Positions 2,537 through 61,839 of a stretch of DNA of 64,000 bases are shown here, in pieces; position 1 is the stretch's first letter, and every line of letters starts with the position of its first letter. A model generated the notes under the pieces. That model was not told the origin of the DNA. It saw only the letters and a list, made by a program, of their open reading frames with translations, and searched no databases. The stretch is taken from sequence record OQ599310. One strand, given 5' to 3'. Both the position numbers and the translations under genes were made by a program. Origin of the DNA: Escherichia phage 55.

Positions 2537-3645
2537 TAGAAAGTCCCCGCATAAAGTGAAGAACGGTTTAATGTAATAATTTCTCGCATTGTTATCTCTA
2601 ACGTAAATGTTGACGGTAAGTTAGGAGCAACAGCAAGACCATTAAATTGTCCATTTGGAGTTTTATCAAAACGTACGCTTTGAATTTGACATGGGCCAAA
2701 TACATCAGTTAACCCGTCAAATTTAGATGTATAACCAAAGTTTTTAACCATCCAAATTGTAGGGTTACTTACAACTAATACATTTGTTAATGACGCAGTA
2801 ATCTTTTCAAACAATGTCTTATTTTTTACTGCATCGTCTGGCGTCATAGGCTCAATAAACGTTGAACGGTACCATTCGTCTAAATAACTTTTAATCTCTT
2901 GGGCGTACTGTGATTTACCGGTCTCACCATATGAGAAATAGTTAAAATACTGGTAAATGTTTATAATAGCCATAAGGTCTTCAGTTGAACGCGGAGTTAA
3001 ATCCCATGTAAAGACTTTAGTACGGTTCTCGGCACCACCATACATACTACGAGAAGTCGTATAAATCTGCTCGTTATTATCAGCCATAAGCCCTTGAGTA
3101 ATAGAATCTAATGCACCAAAAACTGCAGTAGAAGCAATGTTACTTAAAACACCTGTAGCAGTACCTCCACCTTTAGTAATAAGGCTATCACCGATATCAT
3201 TAAAACGATGTGAAGTTGTATCAACGTCAGATTTGGAACGTGGCAAAAGTATATTAGCAACAGGAGTTTTATTTATAGTAGATTTATTAGCTCCGGCAGG
3301 AAGCAACCCATTAGAGAATTTAGTCACTGCATCTTTCACGTTATCAGTTAAATCTGATATGATACCATTAGATGAAGTTCCGGCGTATGCCGGACGTAAA
3401 TTCCTGAGGGATCCTGAATCGCGTGCAGACATATTGTACGCGGTAAATAATAATCCATTCTTATAAAGGTCTGTTACCTGGAAGTCTCCTGTGGAGTCAT
3501 TTCCGGCTGCTCTTCCTGTAGGAAATTGAGCAACATAAGTTTTAGTAGTTGTTTCGGTTTTAGTGCTTTGCCCAGCACTTTCTGAGACTGGGATTGCTTT
3601 ATTTAAATCCTTTGCATCTACTACTATTTCTTTTACACTAATCAT
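2536..3645 (-). CDS. 48: baseplate tail tube cap gp48
   Basis: 369 aa; synteny between 54 and 29; stop overlaps gene 54 start. Confidence 0.8.
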   Translation of the reverse strand: MISVKEIVVDAKDLNKAIPVSESAGQSTKTETTTKTYVAQFPTGRAAGNDSTGDFQVTDLYKNGLLFTAYNMSARDSGSLRNLRPAYAGTSSNGIISDLTDNVKDAVTKFSNGLLPAGANKSTINKTPVANILLPRSKSDVDTTSHRFNDIGDSLITKGGGTATGVLSNIASTAVFGALDSITQGLMADNNEQIYTTSRSMYGGAENRTKVFTWDLTPRSTEDLMAIINIYQYFNYFSYGETGKSQYAQEIKSYLDEWYRSTFIEPMTPDDAVKNKTLFEKITASLTNVLVVSNPTIWMVKNFGYTSKFDGLTDVFGPCQIQSVRFDKTPNGQFNGLAVAPNLPSTFTLEITMREIITLNRSSLYAGTF

Positions 3646-3653
3646 AATAATCC

Positions 3654-5426
3654 TTAATTAACACCGGTGGCATGGAAAATTCCAGGAGCCGTTGTACTTG
3701 TTACAGGGGTCATATTCTGGACTACGGTATTCTTTTTGACGACGTTATTTGTGTTACTAATCGCCGCTACCGGTTGCTGTTGTTTAGATTCAGAAGCACG
3801 TCCTTTCTCTATTGACTGAACTTGTTTTGCTTCCGGAGATTTAGTCGAAGATTCAGGCTTAACTGTTGTCTGAGCCTTTTTGGCTTCAGCCATTTTATTA
3901 TTTAGCTTTTCAAATCTAGCGTCTATTTCCTTTTTAACAACAGGAGTTTTATTAAGTTCAGGGTCTTTAATAAGTTTACTTAAATCAGCATAAGACTTCT
4001 CGACGTTTTTAGCATTTTCCGGATTAGTCATATCGATTTTATCGATATAATCCTCAAATCTAACCAGTGCCGCACGAGTTTCATTAGCTTTTATATACGC
4101 CTCTTTACGCTCCTCTTCAGGTAACTCTTTTAATTTTGCTGATTCCGCAGCACGCTCATCGCTTGTACTAAACTCTTCTTTATTGTCATTACCACGAACC
4201 CAGTTAGTAACGAATGTTTTGCCGCGTTGTAACATATCAAGACCTTTAGAAACGGTTCCTAATTCCCCATCGTCACGCTTCATTTGATATTTAGCGACTT
4301 TCTCTTGGTCTTCTTTCTTTAATTTGTTCCCAGTAGTTTCTTGGAATCCTTCCAAAGCACGTCCTTCTATTTCGTCCGCGGTATCACCAAAACCTATAGC
4401 ACGCAATATAGATGCGGAGAGTTTAGCCATTCCTAATTGAATTAGTTCACCTAAGTTCATTAATGCTGTTCCTACACCTTTGACAATAGCAACGGTTAAA
4501 CCACCCCAGTCTCCAGCTTCCCACAATTGTTTTATCGAGTCAATAGAAGTGAATATATCACTTAAGAATTTACCCCACTCTTGAGCTTCATCGGAGAATT
4601 TAGTAAAGTTTTCATCAAATAAATCCCAGGCAGAAGTGAATTTGTCTGTCCAATATTTGAAATGGACTATCAATAAATCAATACCGATAACAATACCAAG
4701 AATAAGCGCGGCCATTTTTGCTGCTTCAATAGCGGCCGTTATAGTGTATTTGAAAAGCATTCCAGCAATTCTGTCTGAAATTGATATTGATTTATTAAAC
4801 CCGGTTTGAACTGTTTTGGTGAGCATTGCGATTTTATCGCTCAATTTAAAGCTAATTCCGCCTTTAGAATCGGAAGTAGAATTAGCACTTTCTTGAACCG
4901 GGGCTGGGAAGAAATCTTCGTCTGGCTTATTATCAATCTTTTCAGGTGTAGGTAATGCTTTAAACAACTCATCAGAAGTTTCATTCTCAACCACTTTAAC
5001 AGGTATTGCGTTCTCAATTACTTCAAGAGAGGTGCCTCCTGTATTTTGAATAGCGGTAGATGTTTGTAATTTTTGCTCTAACAATGTAGCTAATCGGTCT
5101 AACTTAGAGCTTATTGCACTAGAAACTTCGTTTATACTTTTAGTGACTTCAGTTTGTTTTTCAATAACTTCTGCGATAAGCTCTGTGCCTTCAGCAGTAT
5201 TATCTGTCGAATTCTTTAAGTCTCCAATTGATTCAATAATTCCATTGCCTTTATCTTCTACACTTTGCGATGTGAGTTCAGACGCGGCTTGGACATCGTC
5301 TAGTTTTGATGAAATATCATTCAATGCTTCTAATGAATCGGTAGCTGCTGTTGCAGCTACTTTTTGTGGTTTATTATCGGCAATGACCTTATTTCTACGC
5401 ATGGATTTCATTTCTTCAGGTTTCAT
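3654..5426 (-). CDS. 29: tail length tape measure / baseplate hub gp29
   Basis: 590 aa, same as T4 gp29; synteny. Confidence 0.85.
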   Translation of the reverse strand: MKPEEMKSMRRNKVIADNKPQKVAATAATDSLEALNDISSKLDDVQAASELTSQSVEDKGNGIIESIGDLKNSTDNTAEGTELIAEVIEKQTEVTKSINEVSSAISSKLDRLATLLEQKLQTSTAIQNTGGTSLEVIENAIPVKVVENETSDELFKALPTPEKIDNKPDEDFFPAPVQESANSTSDSKGGISFKLSDKIAMLTKTVQTGFNKSISISDRIAGMLFKYTITAAIEAAKMAALILGIVIGIDLLIVHFKYWTDKFTSAWDLFDENFTKFSDEAQEWGKFLSDIFTSIDSIKQLWEAGDWGGLTVAIVKGVGTALMNLGELIQLGMAKLSASILRAIGFGDTADEIEGRALEGFQETTGNKLKKEDQEKVAKYQMKRDDGELGTVSKGLDMLQRGKTFVTNWVRGNDNKEEFSTSDERAAESAKLKELPEEERKEAYIKANETRAALVRFEDYIDKIDMTNPENAKNVEKSYADLSKLIKDPELNKTPVVKKEIDARFEKLNNKMAEAKKAQTTVKPESSTKSPEAKQVQSIEKGRASESKQQQPVAAISNTNNVVKKNTVVQNMTPVTSTTAPGIFHATGVN

Positions 5427-49416: not shown

Positions 49417-49680
49417 ATGAAAACCTATAAAGAATTTATCGCTGAATCTCAATCTTCTACTCTGTCAGAGAACTACGAATCATTCTCTTACAACAACGAC
49501 CATGCAATGTTCTACGACCGAAACATCGGTACTTATGTCCATGTATGGGGTGTTAAAGATGGTAATGTAGTTGTTAAGAAAAACTCTAAAGAAGGCAACG
49601 GACGAGGCCAGGTAAAAATTACCAGCAAGAAAGCTATCCAAGCTTACGTCGATTATGTTAAACGCGAAGCTGGTATTTAA
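49417..49680 (+). CDS. CTS-bearing internal-protein-like protein (87 aa)
   Basis: N-terminus MKTYKEFIAE; first 23 nt identical to ipI start; early promoter 49353-49381. Confidence 0.75.
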   Translation: MKTYKEFIAESQSSTLSENYESFSYNNDHAMFYDRNIGTYVHVWGVKDGNVVVKKNSKEGNGRGQVKITSKKAIQAYVDYVKREAGI

Positions 49681-53702: not shown

Positions 53703-54296
53703 ATGAACACACTGAAGAAACTTGTTGAATTCATCCGCACTAAACTGGGTACTGCTATGGCTAAAAATCTGACTGTCGAAGAACAGTATAACGCAGCTGC
53801 AGATAAGTTGATTACCCAAATCAAAGAACTAAAAACGGCTTCTGTTAAATCTATTAATGAAGAAAAACGTATTCGCGAACTTGTTAATGAAAAGAACAAG
53901 CAAGCCGCTTCTAAGGAACGTGAAATTCGTAAGCTCCTGGCTGAAGGACAAGATGTTACCATGCATGCTAAGCTTGGTCTTCTGTATCGTCGAACTGCCG
54001 AACAACTTAATACAAAAGCTGACGGGTATGCCGCTATGCGAATTGAAATTGCTCGTAAGGTGGTTGAACTTGACGATGCTCGTCAGAACCTGGCAATCAA
54101 ACTCGAATACATTCGTGAAACTCGAGCAGCCAATGCCCTTGGTATCTCTACGGCTGATGATGTAATTGAAATCGCTGCACTGACTAAGGTTGATATCGAA
54201 GACACTCTGACTCGTGTTGAAACGTTCAATGGCACTCCAGCTGGTGTCGAAACCACTTCTGCTGATGTACAAGAATATATTAACTCTTTGAAATAA
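53703..54296 (+). CDS. coiled-coil protein (possible PspA/IM30-like, unverified)
   Basis: 198 aa, long helical heptad-like sequence; early promoter 53633-53661; terminator 54305-54327. Confidence 0.6.
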
Positions 54297-54345: not shown

Positions 54346-54948
54346 ATGCGAAACCAAAATAATGATATTGACTCAATGTTCGAAGAGTTCCGAGATAAGG
54401 TAAATCCACCTACGTCCTTAGTTGATTCATTACGATATGTTGCAACCGGACGTAAATGGTACTGGTCGTCTTCTTATGAGACCACCGAGAAAACGGCTAG
54501 CCATAGCAGAAAATCTTTATTAGCCCCAGGTATTATGATTCATGATATCGGAGCTATTGCTAAACTAGTTGCAGACCATGATATTAGATTCACTGATTTC
54601 GTTGCTCCTACGTGGTCTGTTTGTTGTTTAAACACTGAATGGGAATATATCAGCGAACGCTCTGAAGATTATTATGGTTTTAGAGATAAGCTTCTGAGGT
54701 CTAATATGTTTTATATCGATACAGAAGTTCTAGTCGATAATAAAAAATATTACTTTACGTTAATCATCGATTCTGAAACTATGTATGAAGGCAAGCCTTT
54801 GCTTAAAAGAGTTGATGCTTTAAGTGCTATTGATGCGCTTTATGAAACTATGGTTGTTAGTCCTAATTTCACTAACAATTTAATCCTTGAGCAATTTATT
54901 ATGGAATGTAGAGAATATGTCAAAGCCAACCCTATACATGCCAAGTAA
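54346..54948 (+). CDS. hypothetical protein
   Basis: 200 aa; RBS AAGGAG. Confidence 0.6.
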   Translation: MRNQNNDIDSMFEEFRDKVNPPTSLVDSLRYVATGRKWYWSSSYETTEKTASHSRKSLLAPGIMIHDIGAIAKLVADHDIRFTDFVAPTWSVCCLNTEWEYISERSEDYYGFRDKLLRSNMFYIDTEVLVDNKKYYFTLIIDSETMYEGKPLLKRVDALSAIDALYETMVVSPNFTNNLILEQFIMECREYVKANPIHAK

Positions 54949-55312
54949 GCCCTGGGCGTATGAATACAAGCGTAAATTAATCCCAAATGAAGTACTATTT
55001 GGCCCTATTTTAGCTTTAGCATTTTTAATCTTTATGATTATAGGAGCTGTTTTAGATTCTAGTGAAGTTATATCGTCTGATGCAGCATTTTCATTAATGT
55101 TCGTCGCACCACTTATTGTACCGTTTTTATTAATGCCTATTAATTGGGCAGGATATTGGCACCAAGGCCGTCATCACAGAGCCCGATTAAGAGAATGGAA
55201 AGTTCAGTGCGCAAAAGCCCAAGCTCAGTATGATGAAGCTGTTAAAAAGTATGAATATGAAGAAGCTATGGAATTCGTTAAGGAAATAAGATGCAAAAGC
55301 CTCAACTCTTAA
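54917..55312 (+). CDS. membrane protein, C-terminal FVKEIRCK motif (start uncertain: 54917 or 54938)
   Basis: Two hydrophobic helices; overlaps upstream gene end. Confidence 0.5.
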   Translation: MSKPTLYMPSKPWAYEYKRKLIPNEVLFGPILALAFLIFMIIGAVLDSSEVISSDAAFSLMFVAPLIVPFLLMPINWAGYWHQGRHHRARLREWKVQCAKAQAQYDEAVKKYEYEEAMEFVKEIRCKSLNS

Positions 55313-55650
55313 CCGTATGGCCTTCTCTTGGTGAGAACATTCTAATTTTTATTATGAGTATTGGCATGGGATTTGCCTTTGGATTAGTTGGATTTCTTAT
55401 TGACGGAGTTGTGTTAGGATTTATAGGGAACACCGGTGGATTCACAGACCAATGGCAGGACTTACGATATACTCAAGCCTTTGCATCCATCGCATCATTT
55501 TGTACTGTAGTCTATTTTTACTACGATTTTATAAACCACAACAAGAAAAATAAAAAGGTTTACGCTTCTCAAATGATTAGTTATAATGAACTCCTAGCTA
55601 GACGTGAAAATGAAACAATCGAAAACTTTATTAAGGAATGTAGAAAATGA
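55291..55650 (+). CDS. membrane protein ending ENFIKECRK
   Basis: 119 aa, hydrophobic core; overlaps upstream ORF by 22 nt. Confidence 0.6.
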   Translation: MQKPQLLTVWPSLGENILIFIMSIGMGFAFGLVGFLIDGVVLGFIGNTGGFTDQWQDLRYTQAFASIASFCTVVYFYYDFINHNKKNKKVYASQMISYNELLARRENETIENFIKECRK

Positions 55651-55952
55651 GTAAGATTATTGAAATTAAAGTACCAGAGTTTAATGATGCCAAATCCGCT
55701 TCAGATGCAATTTATAAACTTCTGAATCAAGCTGAACGTATCGAAGAAGAAGCAACAAAGATCGCAGACCAATATGCTGTATCATTTTCTGTAGGTGATT
55801 ATGGTAGCGGTCGTACTTATTATCCTAAGGGTGAAATCGTATCCCAGTGGATGAAAGATGAAATTGAAAATAATGGCGGCGATGTTAAGCGTGAAGGTAA
55901 TGGATACGTTATTACTGAAGGTGCTTGGGTTTCGTCTTCTGCGTTGTGCTAA
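55647..55952 (+). CDS. small protein paralog A (C-terminal GAWVSSSALC)
   Basis: 101 aa; first of three tandem paralogs. Confidence 0.65.
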   Translation: MSKIIEIKVPEFNDAKSASDAIYKLLNQAERIEEEATKIADQYAVSFSVGDYGSGRTYYPKGEIVSQWMKDEIENNGGDVKREGNGYVITEGAWVSSSALC

Positions 55953-55961
55953 GGAATCATT

Positions 55962-56234
55962 ATGTCTAAAGAACAAACCGAACTGGCTGAAGCTGTAGCA
56001 AAAATCTATGCAGCTATTGAGGCTGCCAAAGAAATTGCTGATAAACAAAACACAACATTCGACTTGTATCCAGCTTATGGTATGGGTGGAACCTATCATT
56101 CACCCGGACATCTTAAAGCCGATCTTGAACGTTGTACAAAAAACGGCCAGGCTGAATGGGCTGACGTTTACCAATACGACTACAACCTGAGCCTTGAAGA
56201 TGGCGGTTGGGTTGCATCTTCTCACACTTGCTAA
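55962..56234 (+). CDS. small protein paralog B (C-terminal GGWVASSHTC)
   Basis: 90 aa; shares KIY..IE.A.EIAD and GxGGTY motifs with paralog A. Confidence 0.65.
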   Translation: MSKEQTELAEAVAKIYAAIEAAKEIADKQNTTFDLYPAYGMGGTYHSPGHLKADLERCTKNGQAEWADVYQYDYNLSLEDGGWVASSHTC

Positions 56235-56243
56235 GGAAATCAT

Positions 56244-56441
56244 ATGTCTCGTGAATTAGATTGTGCTGTACGTACCGCAGTAGCTGCTCTAGAAAACCTG
56301 TTCCAGATTGCAACCGAAGAGCGTGAAGAAGTTACATTGTGGATTGAAGATAACGCAGGTCTGAATCTCCAGGACGCGATCTCATTATCCCACAATAGTA
56401 TCACTGTTCAAGGCTGGGTATCGTCTAGTTATTCTTGCTAA
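56244..56441 (+). CDS. small protein paralog C (C-terminal QGWVSSSYSC)
   Basis: 65 aa; same C-terminal motif and same TAAGGAA-ATG junction. Confidence 0.6.
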   Translation: MSRELDCAVRTAVAALENLFQIATEEREEVTLWIEDNAGLNLQDAISLSHNSITVQGWVSSSYSC

Positions 56442-56446
56442 AACAG

Positions 56447-56475
56447 TTTACAACAAGATAGGGCTATGTTATAGT
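56447..56475 (+). promoter_or_regulatory. early promoter with stem-loop
   Basis: TTTACA / TATAGT; palindrome GATAGGGCTA..TAGCCCTATC. Confidence 0.65.
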
Positions 56476-56503
56476 AGCCCTATCAAATTAAATGGAGTTC
56501 ACA

Positions 56504-56743
56504 ATGATTTATTACGAAAGTATCGGAACCAAAGTGGTTGGTAAAACCATTACTCGTGAAAAGTTTGCAAAGATATTCGATATGCGTTATAAAAAATCTG
56601 AACACAAAGGCATCCGATTCGAAGATGCGCACTGTACAATTTGCCCTTATAATGAAGACATAAACGGTACAATCGTTCCATTGGTAGAGGCTTCACATGA
56701 TGACCTCTGGGATGAATATAATATCGCATGTCGTGAAATTTAA
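56504..56743 (+). CDS. hypothetical protein
   Basis: 79 aa; RBS GGAG; early promoter 56447-56475. Confidence 0.6.
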   Translation: MIYYESIGTKVVGKTITREKFAKIFDMRYKKSEHKGIRFEDAHCTICPYNEDINGTIVPLVEASHDDLWDEYNIACREI

Positions 56744-56767
56744 GTGAATTAATCCGAGGAAAATATT

Positions 56768-57724
56768 ATGATGTTAGTTATTGGTTCTCGTGCACTTCAC
56801 TATCATGGTCTTATTGATTCTAGCGCTATCAAAAATAGCGATTGGGACTTTATTGCGGACCAAGGTTCTTGGAATGCATTCAAAAATCAAATGATGGGTG
56901 TATATGTCCACCAAGATAACCCTGATGTCCAAGTTTTCAAATGCTTCCATAATGGACGCGAAACTCATTTTGAAGCATACATCGTTCCGGCTATCACTAA
57001 CGTTCGCGAACTAGTCGGTGAACTCACTCCTGAAGATTTCACGTCTTCTTATGACCTTTTAAAATACGCCAAGAAAAATTTGACTAAAGACCGTTTGAAC
57101 GGGTTTTACTGGGCAACTCCTGAGATATGTCTTGCAATTAAGATGTCTCATCGTTTCAAGAAAAATAATCCATTCTTTTTAAAGACTATGAACCATATTC
57201 AGTATCTTCGTGGTAAAGGTGTTACACTGAACGATGAACTTACTGAAATTATGCTGAAACGCCAGAAAGAAACCTTGAACTATGCTCACCCAGTTCTTGA
57301 CACTTCTAAAAGTGCGTTCTTTAAAGATGACATCTATACATATGACCATGATACTATTCATGAAGCCATTGCACTAACAGACCGTCCAGCGTATACATTT
57401 TATATGAAAGATGGTTCTGAAGTCATGACCTCACGCGAGAAGTTCGAATCATTACCAGAAATGGTCAAATTGGCCGGCGTATACGAAGAATCATGTGTAC
57501 TAGCGTTAGAACGTTCTCAGATTCCTAATAACTTTGAAATCCATCCACGTGATAGTTTTATGATGGCCCTTGAAAAGGTCTGTACATCAATCACATCAGG
57601 ATGGTTCCGTGAGTTCGCTTGGGAAAATTATAGCAAAGTAGTAAGTATGTACCAAAGCTTAGGACACGACGATTACGTCAAGCGTTTCAAACAAAACTTT
57701 CATATGGTAAAACCTTTCAAATAA
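56768..57724 (+). CDS. hypothetical 318-aa protein, possible nucleotidyltransferase-like N-terminus
   Basis: Largest ORF of the accessory region; N-terminal IGSRAL...SDWDFIAD pattern. Confidence 0.65.
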   Translation: MMLVIGSRALHYHGLIDSSAIKNSDWDFIADQGSWNAFKNQMMGVYVHQDNPDVQVFKCFHNGRETHFEAYIVPAITNVRELVGELTPEDFTSSYDLLKYAKKNLTKDRLNGFYWATPEICLAIKMSHRFKKNNPFFLKTMNHIQYLRGKGVTLNDELTEIMLKRQKETLNYAHPVLDTSKSAFFKDDIYTYDHDTIHEAIALTDRPAYTFYMKDGSEVMTSREKFESLPEMVKLAGVYEESCVLALERSQIPNNFEIHPRDSFMMALEKVCTSITSGWFREFAWENYSKVVSMYQSLGHDDYVKRFKQNFHMVKPFK

Positions 57725-57737
57725 TTTCACAAAACAG

Positions 57738-57766
57738 TTTACAAGGTCTGTAGTTGTTGATACTAT
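57738..57766 (+). promoter_or_regulatory. early promoter with stem-loop
   Basis: TTTACA, 17 nt, TACTAT; GGTCT..AGACC. Confidence 0.6.
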
Positions 57767-57804
57767 AGACCTATCAAAACAAATGAGTGAATGGAGATAT
57801 AAAA

Positions 57805-58005
57805 ATGACTACTTTGAATAAACGTTTCGGTAAAGCTAAACCTGGTTGTGCAGCAGAACGTCGTTATGTTTTCGCTCAGTTAGAAGATGTAGAGTATCAG
57901 ATTAATCAAGTTCACATTACTGGTATCGAGCCTATGTGTGGCCTTGAAGCTCTTCGTGAAGTTCGTGATGGGTATCGTCGTGTCATCGAAGAAATGTCAA
58001 AATAA
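57805..58005 (+). CDS. hypothetical protein
   Basis: 66 aa; RBS GGAG; early promoter 57738-57766. Confidence 0.55.
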   Translation: MTTLNKRFGKAKPGCAAERRYVFAQLEDVEYQINQVHITGIEPMCGLEALREVRDGYRRVIEEMSK

Positions 58006-58006
58006 G

Positions 58007-58035
58007 TGTACAAACTGATAGGACTATGTTATAGT
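58007..58035 (+). promoter_or_regulatory. early promoter with stem-loop (third GATAGGACTA copy)
   Basis: TGTACA / TATAGT. Confidence 0.6.
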
Positions 58036-58063
58036 AGTCCTATTAAAACATGAGGAGAATATT

Positions 58064-58369
58064 ATGAAATTAGGCGAAACCAACCGAATCGGTCTTTTAA
58101 CAATATTTGTATCACTTTTTTACGCAGCTCTTTCTGTTGCAGTATTACAAAAGGCTTACAGTATGGATGGTGTTCCTGGTTTTGTATTCTTATCGCCGTT
58201 TTTGCTATTCGTTGGAGCATTGTTATTATATGCCACGACTAGTTTCGACCATAACGTCTGGGTCAATTATAAATGTAAATTGTCTGAAGAAGAACACGCA
58301 GAAGCTCGTAAAAAAGCTATTGAATCTACCAATCTAGAAAATTTCATTAAAGAATGTCGAGGAAAATAA
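58064..58369 (+). CDS. membrane protein ending ENFIKECRGK
   Basis: 101 aa, two hydrophobic helices; early promoter 58007-58035. Confidence 0.65.
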   Translation: MKLGETNRIGLLTIFVSLFYAALSVAVLQKAYSMDGVPGFVFLSPFLLFVGALLLYATTSFDHNVWVNYKCKLSEEEHAEARKKAIESTNLENFIKECRGK

Positions 58370-58370
58370 T

Positions 58371-59057
58371 ATGAATAGTTCTAAAGTGTTTAATAGTCAA
58401 GCTCGTGCAGTAGGTGGTTTTGCCGGCGGTATTTCTAATGATAAAATCAAGAACGAGCCTATGTTCTTCAACTGTAGTTTAGAATTTGCTTATAATAACG
58501 GCGGTCCTATTACTCGCAGCTTCATCATGAACTTGCCGGATGATTGGAACACCGACCAGGTTGTATTTGATTCACGAGTCCATATGCTGATGCCTGGTTG
58601 GTATCCTGCTATTCCTGGTTATCACCATGATGACGTACCACGCCCGGATATTCCGGTTGGTCAACATTTTATTACTGCAGGACAACCTGACTATGACAAT
58701 CCTCGCTATTTGTCTGAACATATTCTTGGTCTTGTTAACGCTGATGTGTGTCCTACTCATTTTGCAACAGGAACTGCAGAGTTCAGTCAGATTCCTGATG
58801 GCGAACTTATCTATCGCCAGTGGCACAAAGAAGTCCTCGAAAAAATTGAAAAAGGTGAACTAGAGAAATGGGAAGCTCCGGACCGTACTCTTCTTCAGTT
58901 TGATTGGCAAACATGGCACACTGGTTCTCGTGCAATTAGTAATGGATGGCGTTGGTTCGGACGTGTATCTCGTAATACAGACCGAGTTAAAAAGATTACC
59001 AATGAAATTCGTGTCAACGCTCAAGTTTATCTAGAATTCCCTATGGAAGGCTGGTAA
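58371..59057 (+). CDS. hypothetical 228-aa protein
   Basis: His/Trp-rich (GYHHDD, TWHTG); no confident family assignment. Confidence 0.6.
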   Translation: MNSSKVFNSQARAVGGFAGGISNDKIKNEPMFFNCSLEFAYNNGGPITRSFIMNLPDDWNTDQVVFDSRVHMLMPGWYPAIPGYHHDDVPRPDIPVGQHFITAGQPDYDNPRYLSEHILGLVNADVCPTHFATGTAEFSQIPDGELIYRQWHKEVLEKIEKGELEKWEAPDRTLLQFDWQTWHTGSRAISNGWRWFGRVSRNTDRVKKITNEIRVNAQVYLEFPMEGW

Positions 59058-59548
59058 TGATTAACAAAACATATTGGTCTAATATTGACGACGGCAATGA
59101 AGGTATTTCGTACTATTCAGTGGATTGGACAGAATGTCCATCCTACTTAGTGAAACGTATTTGCCAAGAATTTAAAATCGACCAGCCAGCAGGTATTATC
59201 GTGAACAGATACATTAACGGATATCAACCTATCGATGAAGTAATACGAACAACTCAAGCTGATCTTGAAAAGTTTTTCAATAAGTGCCAATGGATAACAG
59301 GATGGATTATATTTGTACCGTCGGTATGGTTTTTTAGTACTAAGGTGAGTTCTTTCGGTTTTGTTGATATTATTGCTATCTTATTAGCATCTATTATCGT
59401 AAGTATAATTGGTGGTATAATTGGTGGAGGTACTATAGGCATCATTATTAATCTTGTTAAAAGTAGTTTACAGGAACGTAAAGACAAGATAAAGGCCAAG
59501 AATAACGAAGTTGAACGTTTTATTACCGAATGCAGGAATTTGAGATGA
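59057..59548 (+). CDS. membrane protein ending ERFITECRNLR
   Basis: 163 aa; soluble N-domain, Gly/Ile-rich TM segment. Confidence 0.65.
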   Translation: MINKTYWSNIDDGNEGISYYSVDWTECPSYLVKRICQEFKIDQPAGIIVNRYINGYQPIDEVIRTTQADLEKFFNKCQWITGWIIFVPSVWFFSTKVSSFGFVDIIAILLASIIVSIIGGIIGGGTIGIIINLVKSSLQERKDKIKAKNNEVERFITECRNLR

Positions 59549-59781
59549 GTATAGCAATTTACATTAAATCAGAATCATGCGATAGTTATCTGTACACGTA
59601 TGATAAAGATGTGTCAGAAGAAAAAATCAAAGACGATCTTAATATGGACCTTGATTTGTTCCGTCCTATTGCAGATTACAAACTTGCGGTCTCTAATAGT
59701 GAAAGTCCATCTAAAGAAACGCGCATTGAAGAATTTATGTCCGAATTAATGGCCAAATCATGGGACAGAGATGATGAGTAA
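59545..59781 (+). CDS. hypothetical protein
   Basis: 78 aa; start ambiguous (59530 or 59545). Confidence 0.5.
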   Translation: MSIAIYIKSESCDSYLYTYDKDVSEEKIKDDLNMDLDLFRPIADYKLAVSNSESPSKETRIEEFMSELMAKSWDRDDE

Positions 59782-60229
59782 GAAAAATAAAGTGAAAGAA
59801 CTATCAGCCGGTATTATTTTCCTTACCGAAGATAAAGAATTATTCATGGGCCGTGTAACTGGTTCTCGTTCTAAAGGTGCATTAGCTCATCGGTGGGATA
59901 TTCCTAAAGGCCGTGTCGAACCTGGCGAATCTCCTATTGAAGCCGCTATTCGTGAATGCGAAGAAGAAACTGGGTTTACACAATATGACCCTGCCTTCCT
60001 GAAAGACCTAGGTGAGCATCATTACTCAGACAATAAGAATATTCATCTGTTCCTATATACCATCCCTGTAGAGCACGAGCAATTCAGAAACAGTGTTTGT
60101 AATTCCTATCATACATTCCCAGACGGACGACAAATTCCTGAATTTGATGCATTCGCTTTAATTAAACCTTCTCAATGGGAATATGTAATGGGCAAATCGT
60201 TATATAAGGTGCTCACTACCCTCCTATAA
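59771..60229 (+). CDS. nudE: Nudix hydrolase
   Basis: Nudix box GRVEPGESPIEAAIRECEEETG; immediately upstream of e as in T4. Confidence 0.9.
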   Translation: MMSKKNKVKELSAGIIFLTEDKELFMGRVTGSRSKGALAHRWDIPKGRVEPGESPIEAAIRECEEETGFTQYDPAFLKDLGEHHYSDNKNIHLFLYTIPVEHEQFRNSVCNSYHTFPDGRQIPEFDAFALIKPSQWEYVMGKSLYKVLTTLL

Positions 60230-60263: not shown

Positions 60264-60752
60264 ATGAATATATTTGAAATGCTTCGTAATGACGAAGGTC
60301 TTAGACTGACTTTATACAAAGACACTGAAGGCTTTTGGACAATTGGCATAGGCCATTTAGTAACAAAGAACCCGTCTTTAGCCGTAGCTAAAGCTGAACT
60401 CGACAGAATGATCGGACGTAAATGCAACGGTACAATTACCCTTGATGAGGCTGAAAAGCTATTTAATGAAGACGTTGATAAAGCCGTTCGCGGAATTTTG
60501 GGTAATGCTAAACTTAAACCGGTATATGATTCTTTAGATGCGGTTCGTCGATGTGCATTGGTCAATATGGTCTTCCAAATGGGTGTAGCAGGCGTCGCCG
60601 GTTTTACTAATTCTCTTCGTATGCTTCAACAGAAACGTTGGGATGAAGCGGCAGTAAATCTAGCCCAATCTAAATGGTATCGTCAGACACCTAATCGCGC
60701 GAAACGCGTAATCTCAACATTTAAAACAGGAACTTGGAAAGCGTATATATGA
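60264..60752 (+). CDS. e: lysozyme (endolysin)
   Basis: MNIFEMLR...DEAEKLFN...[13 protein letters not shown] matches T4 lysozyme; start ATG 60264 after GGAGG; track start 60252 is GTG. Confidence 0.97.
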
Positions 60753-61030
60753 AAACATATAGCGAATTTTTATCAGAATCTATTCTTAACGAAGCTACTG
60801 ACACATTTGCAACTAAGCTAGGTGCCGCTTTGGTTGAAGCCGAAAGTCTATTAGCACGTATTTCTGAACTTGCTAGTAAGATAGATACTCGCAAATTTGA
60901 GCGCACCAGTGATATCGTTAAGCTTGAAGCACTGTTGCGTATGTGCGATAAACCCGAAGAAATCGCTAAGAACGGCTCGCTGATGAAACAACGTCTTGAA
61001 AAATATATTTCAGGCGCTTCAGAAAAATAG
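60749..61030 (+). CDS. CTS-bearing internal-protein-like protein (94 aa; IPII/IPIII position)
   Basis: N-terminus [10 protein letters not shown]; ATGA overlap with e stop. Confidence 0.75.
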
Positions 61031-61509: not shown

Positions 61510-61839
61510 ATGAAAACATATCAAGAGTTTATCACTGAAGTTACATTATCTGCGGAACAGAAAGCTGCTATCGAAGAAAGTAAAAATCCCAAAGTAACAT
61601 ATAAAGTAAATAGTAAAGGCGTTTTTGATGGCTTGGTTCAAGACCCTGAATTGAAAAAAGCTCTTTCTAAAACTAATGCGTACTTTGCTCCTAAATTTAA
61701 CACAGCAGGTGTACTTATTGGATTGGATGTATTCAACTCTAAAGGTGTTCTATCTAATGCCTTTGGTTATGCCGCTAACAAAATTACCAAAGCCGCATGG
61801 GAATCCAATACCAAACAAGCTCAAAAGCCTAGAGTATAA
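61510..61839 (+). CDS. CTS-bearing internal-protein-like protein (109 aa)
   Basis: MKTYQEFITE at internal Met after AAGGAAAAA RBS. Confidence 0.75.
   Translation: MKTYQEFITEVTLSAEQKAAIEESKNPKVTYKVNSKGVFDGLVQDPELKKALSKTNAYFAPKFNTAGVLIGLDVFNSKGVLSNAFGYAANKITKAAWESNTKQAQKPRV

Follow-up and report, generated by a model that had tools for sequence, protein, structure and literature searches.

A conserved C-terminal motif shared by small membrane proteins and a soluble early protein of T4-type phages

Introduction

The internal proteins IPI, IPII and IPIII of phage T4 carry a capsid targeting sequence (CTS), an N-terminal peptide that sends them into the prohead and is removed by the gp21 protease (PMC3012670). 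Proteins of the PspA family are recruited by small membrane proteins: those of the PspB/PspC and LiaI types bring PspA or LiaH to the membrane (reviewed in PMC7619361). Here, we describe a short C-terminal motif on accessory proteins encoded between e.6 and nudE, in a single gene block of T4-type phages with early or middle transcription. We found no published description of this motif in the literature. In a laboratory host, knock-down of T4 e.2 to e.6 left fitness unchanged (PMC11879866 supplement).

Results and discussion

The window, i.e. the whole 64-kb stretch of DNA analysed, comes from a Mosigvirus (RB69-like), T4-type phage. It was originally predicted that four membrane proteins share the motif. 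Re-reading of the sequence located all four ORFs with the C-terminal ends as quoted, and all four carry the motif, but a fifth copy on the soluble e.5 homologue had been overlooked. Membrane proteins are thus not the only bearers of the motif. The features, all on the + strand, are:

53703..54296, + strand: e.6 homologue, a context gene; probable divergent PspA/IM30/Vipp1 protein (ESCRT-III superfamily)
54346..54948, + strand: e.5 homologue, soluble, 200 aa, no transmembrane (TM) segment; phrog_2607; ends in ...LEQFIMECREYVKANPIHAK
54895..54912, + strand: e.5 motif codons, F-I-M-E-C-R
54917..55312, + strand: e.4 homologue, two-TM hairpin and cytoplasmic tail as predicted from hydropathy and charge; phrog_2604; ends in ...MEFVKEIRCKSLNS
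55274..55291, + strand: e.4 motif codons, F-V-K-E-I-R
55291..55650, + strand: e.3 homologue, small membrane protein with a predicted cytoplasmic tail; phrog_2330; ends in ...ENFIKECRK
55627..55644, + strand: e.3 motif codons, F-I-K-E-C-R
58064..58369, + strand: RB69 ORF133c homologue, predicted two-TM protein; phrog_9798; ends in ...ENFIKECRGK
58343..58360, + strand: ORF133c motif codons, F-I-K-E-C-R (Lys is AAA)
59057..59548, + strand: e.2 homologue (named RB69 e.2 by one source), soluble N-terminal domain of ~80 aa, then a predicted two-TM hairpin and cytoplasmic tail; phrog_2203; ends in ...ERFITECRNLR
59519..59536, + strand: e.2 motif codons, F-I-T-E-C-R

The ORF133c homologue adjoins, on the upstream side, a conserved 228-aa gene. 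The full peptide shared by the window genes is L-x-x-F-[I/V]-x-x-C-R.

Chance is no explanation for the five window tails. In a six-frame translation of the window, F[IV]xE[CI]R occurs five times against 0.2 expected, and all copies are 1-11 residues from a stop codon. Among the 133 ORFs of at least 60 aa, five have the pattern within their last 20 residues; 500 residue shuffles of these ORFs gave a mean of 0.002 and a maximum of one motif-bearing C-terminus. A position matrix trained solely on 30 tails from other genera, none of them from the window, ranked the five window tails as the top five of 23,616 positions, with scores of 16-26 bits and the next best position at 8.0. The same matrix bears on the idea that the tails are signals for capsid targeting or the prohead protease, cut by or bound to the membrane-assembled prohead core. 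F-I-x-E does resemble the CTS (MKTYQEFIAE) and the gp21 site (I/L-x-E), F-I-A-E-A-R of T4 IPII/IPIII fits a relaxed pattern, and internal-protein genes of the window, with starts that include MKTYQEFITE and MKTYKEFIAE, flank the cluster. Capsid targeting sequences, however, score ~0 bits with the tail matrix, other genera have G/N/Q/S/H/L/M/Y where cleavage requires Glu, the motif is C-terminal instead of N-terminal, and its bearers are early genes and integral membrane proteins. We regard such a signal as most improbable.

The original prediction depended on the presence of the motif in orthologues from related phages. It is kept in T4, T6, VR20, JS10 and IME523, and also in Marfa, Merlin, CHI14, RB43 and an Aeromonas phage. 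The proteins end in EKFVKECREYVK (T4 e.5), MKFVKESRCKSQS (T4 e.4), KEFVIDCRKIK (T4 e.3) and NNFITECRKLK (T6 e.2). The consensus over the phages is hydrophobic-x-x-F-[I/V]-x-x-C-[R/K], and the core, [FWY]-[IV]-x-x-[C or I/V/M/L/S]-[RK], was found in ~40 tails from 11 genera and two metagenome contigs, always 0-25 residues from the C-terminus. Within the T4 genome and the 64-kb window, the motif does not occur outside this gene block; a whole-genome scan of T4 found it solely in e.5, e.4, e.3 and the e.2 remnant. Genomes encode one to five bearers, one to four of them two-TM proteins.

The motif is the most conserved element of otherwise fast-diverging proteins, and persists where the remainder of the protein has diverged down to 15-20% identity. 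In phiC120 and FL31, e.3 is lost save for its final ~30 codons. Its most conserved bearer is e.5: F-[IV]-x-x-C-[RK] is present in 31 of 33 e.5 homologues (25 of these proteins being representatives from an exhaustive search), and the two without it are fragments. In the e.5 alignment, which spans 10 genera, the initiator Met, F184 and C188 alone are invariant, and R189 almost is. Similarly, the motif Phe is the sole invariant residue besides Met1 in a combined alignment of 12 e.3 and e.4 sequences.

Each of the four membrane ORFs has a hydrophobic block of ~45-60 residues, which fits two TM helices, with Lys/Arg-rich segments on either side. It is hydropathy that bears out the claim that they are membrane proteins. 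Because Lys/Arg residues flank the block, both protein ends would lie inside the cell according to the positive-inside rule, and the tails, whose placement in cytoplasm or periplasm had been at issue, are predicted to be cytoplasmic. In an AlphaFold2 model of e.5, modest overall (pLDDT 62), the motif lies within a helix at residues 178-194 with a local pLDDT of ~83. In general, the motif lies on one face of a predicted α-helix. A search for structural neighbours of the e.5 model found none.

The codon differences pointed out in the original prediction are correct (TTT/TTC, AAG/AAA/ACC, TGT/TGC, AGA/CGA/AGG). Over 35 tails, each conserved residue uses several synonymous codons: TTT/TTC for Phe, ATT/ATC/ATA for Ile, TGT/TGC for Cys, and all of AGA/AGG/CGA/CGT/CGG/CGC for Arg. 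This synonymous variety, together with a motif that outlasts divergence elsewhere in the protein, upholds the earlier argument for selection on the peptide and not a recent DNA copy.

Could the conserved 18 nt instead be the translation initiation region of the downstream gene, composed of a Shine-Dalgarno sequence and an A/U-rich enhancer, with the peptide as a by-product? Every window motif ends 0-10 nt ahead of the next start codon. AAGGAA (Lys-Glu) in the e.4 motif doubles as the Shine-Dalgarno sequence of e.3, and is a good one both there and for the gene following e.3; the common R-K-stop ending (AAATGA) reflects an ATGA stop/start overlap. Third codon positions, however, vary freely, and the Shine-Dalgarno register differs gene by gene, being encoded by K-E in e.4 and e.3, R-G in ORF133c (GAGGA, 3' of the motif) and R-N in e.2. 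The e.5 proteins of RB43 and an Aeromonas phage retain the motif 6-25 codons from the stop (25 in RB43), and that of avDM5 retains it though no overlapping gene follows. All copies are in frame, none being found out of frame or between genes in the window or T4, and the five gene junctions have no RNA structure (z-scores +0.9, +0.8, +1.6, +0.5 and -0.7). Since synonymous codons are free, Shine-Dalgarno registers differ and the junctions lack RNA structure, selection acts on the motif at the amino-acid level. The codon data already largely refute an RNA-level element, which we consider very improbable.

That amino acids and not nucleotides are conserved would also be expected of a nascent-chain arrest or monitoring peptide, which would stall the ribosome before the next gene and couple its translation to membrane insertion. 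The architecture fits, with N-terminal TM segments, a conserved peptide 0-6 residues from the stop and the next start codon 0-10 nt downstream. On the other hand, e.5 lacks TM segments altogether and carries its motif 3-25 residues before the stop. The spacing between the last TM segment and the motif is far from constant (tails of 21-56 residues), and a hairpin able to mask the Shine-Dalgarno sequence is absent from all five junctions. Moreover, only six residues are conserved, and known arrest peptides have more than that. We therefore give this explanation only a slight chance.

The tail is most reasonably read as a signal for interaction or targeting that these proteins have in common. In particular, we give about an even chance to the motif being a shared helical docking handle at the cytoplasmic face of the inner membrane, which would link these variable proteins with a single conserved partner or with one another. 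How the families are related has to be weighed here, as the membrane proteins could be old tandem duplicates whose tail is simply the slowest-evolving piece, e.g. a homo-oligomerisation helix, with no common partner. When family profiles were compared by hhalign, the tail was the only aligned part, apart from a weak similarity among e.4, e.3 and e.2 that was left after motif removal (e.4-e.3, Prob 82%; e.3-e.2, 68%). Consistent with duplication, e.3 and e.4 have an N-terminal x-K-P in common, ORF133c weakly matches the e.2 family phrog_2203 (E = 1.2e-4; the BLASTP alignment with e.2 covers the last 23 residues only), the genes are adjacent and their copy number varies. Yet soluble e.5, the most faithful bearer, has the motif alone in common with the membrane proteins, and neither e.5 nor the ORF133c-like proteins gave any hhalign match once the motif was removed. 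A six-residue pattern that stays the same on scaffolds otherwise unrelated suggests that they share a constraint. Duplication without a common partner is, in our judgement, rather unlikely, and descent from duplicates is compatible with a shared partner.

There may be more to the motif than plain helix docking, as the near-invariance of the Cys suggests metal, redox or covalent chemistry. It is invariant in e.5 and nearly so in the e.3 and e.2 lines, where Arg or Lys always follows, so the Cys-Arg/Lys pair could be a reactive thiol that the helix would just present, serving as a redox sensor, as a carrier of persulfide or acyl groups, or as a ligand that bridges subunits through a metal or Fe-S centre. 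The name 'sulfurtransferase' is given to e.3 and e.4 in some GenBank records; we could trace no basis for it, and Pfam, NCBIfam and PHROGs gave no rhodanese or other sulfurtransferase domain. Against such chemistry, the e.4 line has I/V/M/L/S in place of Cys, and e.5 has no other conserved ligand residues. We consider the reactive-thiol explanation unlikely. As the e.4 line lacks the Cys, the families may not all act alike.

What could the partner of a docking handle be? Directly 5' of e.5 in every genome examined is e.6, probably a divergent PspA/Vipp1 (ESCRT-III) protein according to sub-threshold sequence matches and its predicted fold. Such a protein constantly found upstream of the bearers hints at a phage membrane module. 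We speculate that the membrane bearers could anchor e.6, as PspB/PspC do for PspA and LiaI for LiaH, and that e.5 could be a soluble competitor or adaptor. Since these genera have e.6 as a core gene, little weight can be put on the adjacency. The tails resemble neither the e.6 C-terminal helix (2.3 bits) nor known PspA-binding sequences. That e.6 is the partner is speculative, and we rate it as doubtful.

Comparison with known systems

Like the CTS, the motif is a short conserved peptide on accessory proteins that are non-essential and, apart from it, hypervariable. Their genes lie in the same hyperplastic part of T4-type genomes, and the principle of a constant handle on a variable body is the same. 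Unlike the CTS, the motif is C-terminal, its bearers are membrane proteins plus a single soluble early protein, and it has no obligatory Glu outside one clade.

The membrane bearers also recall PspB/PspC of E. coli and LiaI of B. subtilis, small inner-membrane proteins with cytoplasmic tails that are encoded beside a PspA/IM30-type gene. The phage proteins differ in having no sequence relationship to them (no Pfam match to PspB, PspC or LiaI) and in including the soluble bearer e.5, and e.6 is a candidate target only.

MifM, SecM and VemP are likewise membrane-targeted proteins with a conserved C-terminal peptide just 5' of the next cistron. In contrast to these, the phage genes have no hairpin masking a Shine-Dalgarno sequence, their conserved core is much shorter, the distance from motif to stop varies, and the motif is also on a soluble protein.

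Finally, the helices of MIT-interacting motifs (MIMs, e.g. MIM1) of ESCRT-III proteins are docking peptides at the extreme C-terminus, amphipathic and with hydrophobic-x-x-hydrophobic-basic spacing. The phage motif would be similar in all these respects. MIMs, however, form part of the ESCRT-III subunit itself; they dock onto the MIT domains of Vps4-type ATPases, which are missing from bacteria and these phages (PMC7619361), whereas the phage motif is on the neighbours of the ESCRT-III-like protein.

A C-terminal motif shared by five neighbouring proteins

By sequence comparison, the window belongs to a Mosigvirus, an RB69-like T4-type phage, and phages ATK47 and JK45 are 97.7% identical to it over 5.5 kb. 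The genes that carry the motif form a block on the + strand between the tRNA region and nudE / e (lysozyme) / denV. Gene names and order were assigned by comparison with annotated relatives and T4.

Genes of the motif block in the window.
53703-54296, + strand, e.6
54346-54948, + strand, e.5
54917-55312, + strand, e.4
55291-55650, + strand, e.3
55647-58005, + strand, variable insert
58064-58369, + strand, RB69 ORF133c
58371-59057, + strand, conserved gene for a 228-aa protein
59057-59548, + strand, e.2
59545-59781, + strand, small ORF
59771-60229, + strand, nudE

It had been predicted that e.4, e.3, ORF133c and e.2 encode membrane proteins with a common FIKECR-type tail (EFVKEIRCK, ENFIKECRK, ENFIKECRGK and ERFITECRNLR, respectively). 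All four endings were found exactly as described, and the synonymous codon differences cited for them (AAG/AAA, AGA/CGA/AGG, TGT/TGC) are present. A six-frame search revealed a fifth copy that had escaped the original prediction, at the end of the soluble protein e.5 (...LEQFIMECREYVKANPIHAK), and no further copies elsewhere in the 64 kb. In the six-frame translation of the window, the pattern F[IV].E[CI]R was observed five times against an expectation of 0.2, and all five matches lie within the last 20 residues of real ORFs. When the residues of 133 ORFs were shuffled (n=500), the mean number of matches was 0.002 and the maximum was 1. Moreover, a position matrix trained solely on 30 tails of other genera placed the five window tails as the top five of 23,616 positions, with scores of 16-26 bits versus 8.0 for the next best. 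These results confirm and extend the original observation. The e.2 homologue has, in addition, a second and weak motif-like string, DLEKFFNKCQ, at residues 69-78 before its first TM helix; the score of this string is 6.4-9.0 bits, and it has no clear counterpart among the e.2 orthologues compared.

Other genes of the region were noted in passing. The 228-aa protein corresponds to phrog_1843 and is without a match in Pfam or NCBIfam; it varies little among the seven genera compared and is missing from the T4 e region, and its gene has motif-bearing membrane proteins on both flanks in the window, Marfa and IME523. Three small tandem paralogues (window 55647-55952, 55962-56234 and 56244-56441), the first of which matches phrog_899, share the C-terminus G-x-W-V-[SA]-S-S-x-x-C-stop (AWVSSSALC, GWVASSHTC and GWVSSSYSC). 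The same family and ending are found in VR20 (five copies), JS10, IME523, Marfa, Merlin, CHI14 and one metagenome contig. This ending is a second conserved C-terminal motif, unrelated to the first and directly adjoining it. Genes resembling those of internal proteins, with the capsid targeting sequence (CTS) at their start, lie on both sides of the e cluster (49417-49680, 60749-61030 and 61510-61839).

Conservation of the motif across phages

The original prediction had named absence of the tail from orthologues in related phages as the observation that would overturn it. The motif was found in every genus reached, and the prediction stands on this point.

Motif copies in related phages and metagenome contigs.
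T4 (Tequatrovirus): tails of e.5 EKFVKECREYVK, e.4 MKFVKESRCKSQS and e.3 KEFVIDCRKIK
T6 (Tequatrovirus): tail of e.2 NNFITECRKLK
VR20 (Gaprivervirus): four copies
JS10 (Dhakavirus): three copies
IME523 (Kanagawavirus): four copies, including the weak variant F-A-G-E-I-K
Marfa (Marfavirus): five copies
Merlin (Moonvirus): four copies
CHI14 (Winklervirus): four copies
RB43 (Pseudotevenvirus): in e.5 only
avDM5 (Aeromonas phage, Biquartavirus): in e.5 only
Two metagenome contigs: one copy and five copies

The core of the motif is [F/W/Y]-[I/V]-x-x-C-[R/K], where I, V, M, L or S can replace the Cys, mainly in the e.4 line. A hydrophobic residue is found at position -3 relative to the Phe in 35 of 39 distinct tails, and positions -3, 0, +1 and +4 fall on the same face of a helix. 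All of the ~70 instances are located 0-25 residues from the C-terminus. In an alignment of e.5 from 10 genera, in which identity is 15-21% except for the T4 pair, Met1 and the Phe and Cys of the motif are the sole invariant residues, and the Arg is nearly invariant. Similarly, only Met1 and the motif Phe are invariant in a joint alignment of e.3 and e.4. The e.5 family is small, with just 28 clusters found among 1.84 billion representatives in an exhaustive HMMER search, and F-[IV]-x-x-C-[RK] is present in 31 of 33 e.5 proteins, 3-19 residues from the end; the two proteins without it are truncated fragments. Word-indexed searches for homologues of e.2 and e.5 returned close relatives only. Scanning the whole T4 genome turned up the motif solely in e.5, e.4 and e.3 and, out of frame, in what remains of e.2.

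In Tequatro-, Mosig-, Gapriver- and Dhakavirus, all 16 tails have Glu or Asp at position +3. In the e.5, e.3 and e.2 of other genera this position is variable (G, N, Q, S, H, L, M or Y for Glu), and Glu is also found in the e.4 line. The pattern may be a weak hint of co-evolution, to which we attach little weight because two clades only are compared.

A DNA scan of IMG/VR for codons of E-N-F-I-K-E-C-R gave 10 loci, four of which are Mosigvirus copies of e.3 or ORF133c. The other six are probably chance or unrelated matches, about 1-2 chance matches being expected by a rough estimate. One locus lies in an ORF that, on reading its sequence, resembles an RNA-virus polymerase. The string is internal to a 115-aa marine-phage protein on three metagenome contigs (L010 11995-12017, L011 894-916 and L012 4410-4432), and it ends a 41-codon ORF on contigs L003 (6650-6672) and L006 (830-852), one of which is a 299-kb jumbo-phage contig; both occurrences may well be chance at that database size.

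Loss of individual members

In a CRISPRi-ART screen, the function and essentiality of T4 e.2 to e.6 are given as unknown, and their knock-downs were scored 'Not Fit', meaning that fitness in the laboratory host was unaffected (PMC11879866 supplement). Losses in natural genomes agree that single members are dispensable: phiC120 and FL31 have a deletion of e.3, JS10 has no e.4, and e.2 is missing in vB_Eco_F26 and carries a frameshift in the T4 reference.

The T4 reference e.2 (102 aa; T4 67491-67960, which is 3492-3961 of locus L002) is a disrupted form of the 162-aa e.2 of T6 (701-1189 of locus L030). In-frame stops and a shift of frame occur in the second TM helix, with NNFITECRKLK still readable downstream; either T4 e.2 is a pseudogene or the reference carries an old sequencing error. 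In the Mosigviruses phiC120 and FL31, e.3 is lost save its last ~30 codons (locus L014 about 3990-4090 and L015 about 4000-4100; window 55559-55587). The remnant holds GCTT...TATAAT, annotated as a T4 middle promoter in a close relative, as well as the next gene's Shine-Dalgarno sequence, and may have been retained because of these two elements.

The motif is selected as a peptide

For every copy in the window, the motif ends 0-10 nt from the next start codon, and in e.4 and e.3 the Lys-Glu codons AAGGAA double as the Shine-Dalgarno sequence of the next gene. An explanation at the RNA level therefore needed testing. Several synonymous codons are used at each conserved residue in 35 tabulated tails. 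The register of the Shine-Dalgarno sequence varies by gene, being formed in ORF133c by the R-G codons that follow AAA-GAA for Lys-Glu, and in e.2 by the R-N codons. In e.5 of RB43 and the Aeromonas phage, the motif lies 6-25 codons before the stop and no gene overlaps it. Predicted folding at the five junctions is no better than for shuffled sequence (z-scores of -0.7 to +1.6). An RNA element or a translation initiation region was rejected on codon variation, shifting register, unstructured junctions and distance from the stop. Nucleotide context accounts for side features only, such as the common Arg-Lys-stop (AAATGA, with an ATGA stop/start overlap).

It could be argued that the tails are arrest peptides of the MifM/SecM/VemP type. 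The N-terminal export or insertion signal that is a trait of such peptides is present in e.4, e.3, ORF133c and e.2, and not in e.5. A hairpin that would hide the downstream Shine-Dalgarno sequence is not seen at the five junctions, given the z-scores above (-0.7 to +1.6). Selection on the motif is at the amino-acid level, and the motif is deeply conserved.

We also considered whether the tails are CTS peptides or sites of the prohead protease gp21. The CTS is placed at the N-terminus after the initiator Met (MKTYQEFIAE) and the tails are C-terminal. The I/L-x-E rule (Glu at P1, Leu/Ile at P3) does not hold, Glu being confined to the Tequatro-, Mosig-, Gapriver- and Dhakavirus clade and the e.4 line. 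CTS peptides score -5.9 to +0.5 bits in the tail matrix versus 16-26 for true tails. This identity was rejected.

Topology and family relationships

The claim that e.4, e.3, ORF133c and e.2 are membrane proteins is supported by their hydropathy. Each has a hydrophobic block of ~45-60 residues that would fit a hairpin of two helices, and e.5 lacks any hydrophobic segment. Ahead of the block is a short Lys/Arg-containing N-terminus, or in e.2 a soluble domain of 80 residues, and after it comes a Lys/Arg-rich tail of 21-56 residues. Because of these Lys/Arg-rich flanks, the positive-inside rule would place both ends, and the motif with them, in the cytoplasm, as read from a crude hydropathy script rather than a dedicated predictor. 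The tails are unlikely to lie in the membrane surface as in-plane anchor helices, because their mean hydrophobicity is negative; their hydrophobic moments are mostly low. In the AlphaFold2 model of e.5 (7 sequences, overall pLDDT 62), the motif is predicted to lie in a helix spanning residues 178-194, with a local pLDDT of about 83. The model has no meaningful structural neighbours.

The five proteins fall into five separate PHROGs families, all of unknown function. None has a match in NCBIfam, and none in Pfam at E <= 0.1 save one stray match to PcfK. Several GenBank records (JK45, JK42, JK36, vB_Eco_F26, vB_Eco_F31, Killian and others; locus L022) label e.3 and e.4 'sulfurtransferase'. The label is probably a propagated mis-annotation, because a rhodanese/sulfurtransferase domain is absent from the Pfam, NCBIfam and PHROGs results.

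Profile-profile comparison of the families aligned the tails alone, and BLASTP between families aligned 23-27 tail residues and nothing more. When the motif was cut off, hhalign gave weak matches between e.4 and e.3 (Prob 82%, in the helix ahead of the motif) and between e.3 and e.2 (Prob 68%, in TM2 plus tail). All other pairs were below 3%, and the similarity of e.5 and the ORF133c-like proteins was lost entirely. Judging from these residual matches, ancient duplication may have given rise to some of the membrane proteins. The motif spans at least one clear fold boundary, that between soluble e.5 and the membrane proteins, and its behaviour is that of a short linear motif rather than of a domain-family core.

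The upstream neighbour e.6

The gene e.6 lies immediately 5' of e.5 in every genome examined and is found in 1,101 phage records. The order e.6-e.5-e.4-e.3 is shared by the window, T4, VR20, Marfa and Merlin; the number of membrane-protein copies is lower in some genera, and e.4 is missing from JS10. When the e.6 profile was compared with PDB sequences, Vipp1 gave the best matches, collinear over residues 1-143 (E = 0.04-0.2). PF04012 (PspA_IM30) was matched by 17 of 50 e.6 homologues, with a best E of 7e-5, and is the Pfam family with the most members matched; the window e.6 itself has no match to it. The AlphaFold2 model of e.6 (50 sequences, pLDDT 77) starts with one helix, continues into a long helical hairpin and ends in short helices, and this predicted arrangement has the elements of the ESCRT-III fold (H0 helix, long H1-H2/3 hairpin, short H4 and H5). 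In Foldseek, the eight best PDB matches to the model are all Vipp1, and archaeal CdvB2 comes next. Profile, Pfam matches and model together suggest that e.6 is a divergent member of the PspA/IM30/Vipp1 proteins, within the ESCRT-III superfamily. JGI names one homologue 'phage shock protein A', and UniRef names others 'host specificity protein'. Our literature search found no paper that links T4 e.6 with PspA, or that discusses e.2-e.6 apart from the listing in the screen.

Small membrane proteins, PspB/PspC and LiaI, bring PspA-family proteins to the membrane, and ESCRT-III subunits polymerise by docking helix H5 on the hairpin of a neighbour (review PMC7619361). This recruitment and H5 docking make e.6 an attractive candidate partner of the tails, for which gene adjacency may speak. 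Mimicry of the conserved C-terminal helix of e.6 (..EYINSLK) by the tails is not supported, because the loose pattern match scores 2.3 bits. Membership of the five proteins in the PspB, PspC or LiaI families was rejected, with no Pfam or NCBIfam match to these families.

Discussion

What could be the role of a short peptide on proteins that have little else in common? The best fit to our data is a cytoplasmic, helical docking handle common to variable and dispensable early proteins, a reading to which we give about an even chance. Such a handle would link e.5 and the membrane proteins to a single conserved partner or link them with one another. The near-invariant Cys followed by Arg/Lys may point to more than hydrophobic packing, e.g. 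a reactive thiol or a bridging metal; in the e.4 line that Cys is absent. A literature search found none of the motif strings in the papers covered, and the motif appears to be previously undescribed.

A more elaborate possibility, which we consider rather unlikely, is that T4-type phages have a hitherto unrecognised membrane module made up of e.6 (PspA/Vipp1, ESCRT-III-like), the fast-evolving soluble e.5 and a variable set of 2-TM proteins (e.4, e.3, ORF133c and e.2). All members would plug into an e.6 polymer, or into one host target, via the F-[I/V]-x-x-C-R helix, and the module would give the phage a means of stabilising or remodelling the host inner membrane during infection.

Ever since annotation of the T4 genome, e.2 to e.6 have stood as 'unknown', a status unchanged in a genome-wide knock-down screen from 2025 (PMC11879866). 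The six-residue handle, which is the sole invariant part of e.5 besides Met1 and stands on up to four neighbouring membrane proteins per genome, is a concrete reagent. A motif peptide together with three point mutants offers a way to seek a common partner and to treat five orphan genes as one system. If the docking handle is real and its partner is e.6, it would belong to a virus-encoded membrane system of the ESCRT-III type that brings its own adaptors; with a host protein as partner, the motif would mark a host hub that is hit early in infection.

Two known systems invite comparison. Like PspB/PspC and LiaI, the membrane proteins of the set would be small inner-membrane proteins with a predicted cytoplasmic tail, encoded beside a PspA-type gene, and the likeness is one of analogy only. 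The nearest precedent in these genomes is the CTS of the hypervariable internal proteins; the peptides themselves are unrelated, and the internal proteins' design of a constant handle on a variable body may recur in these genomes.
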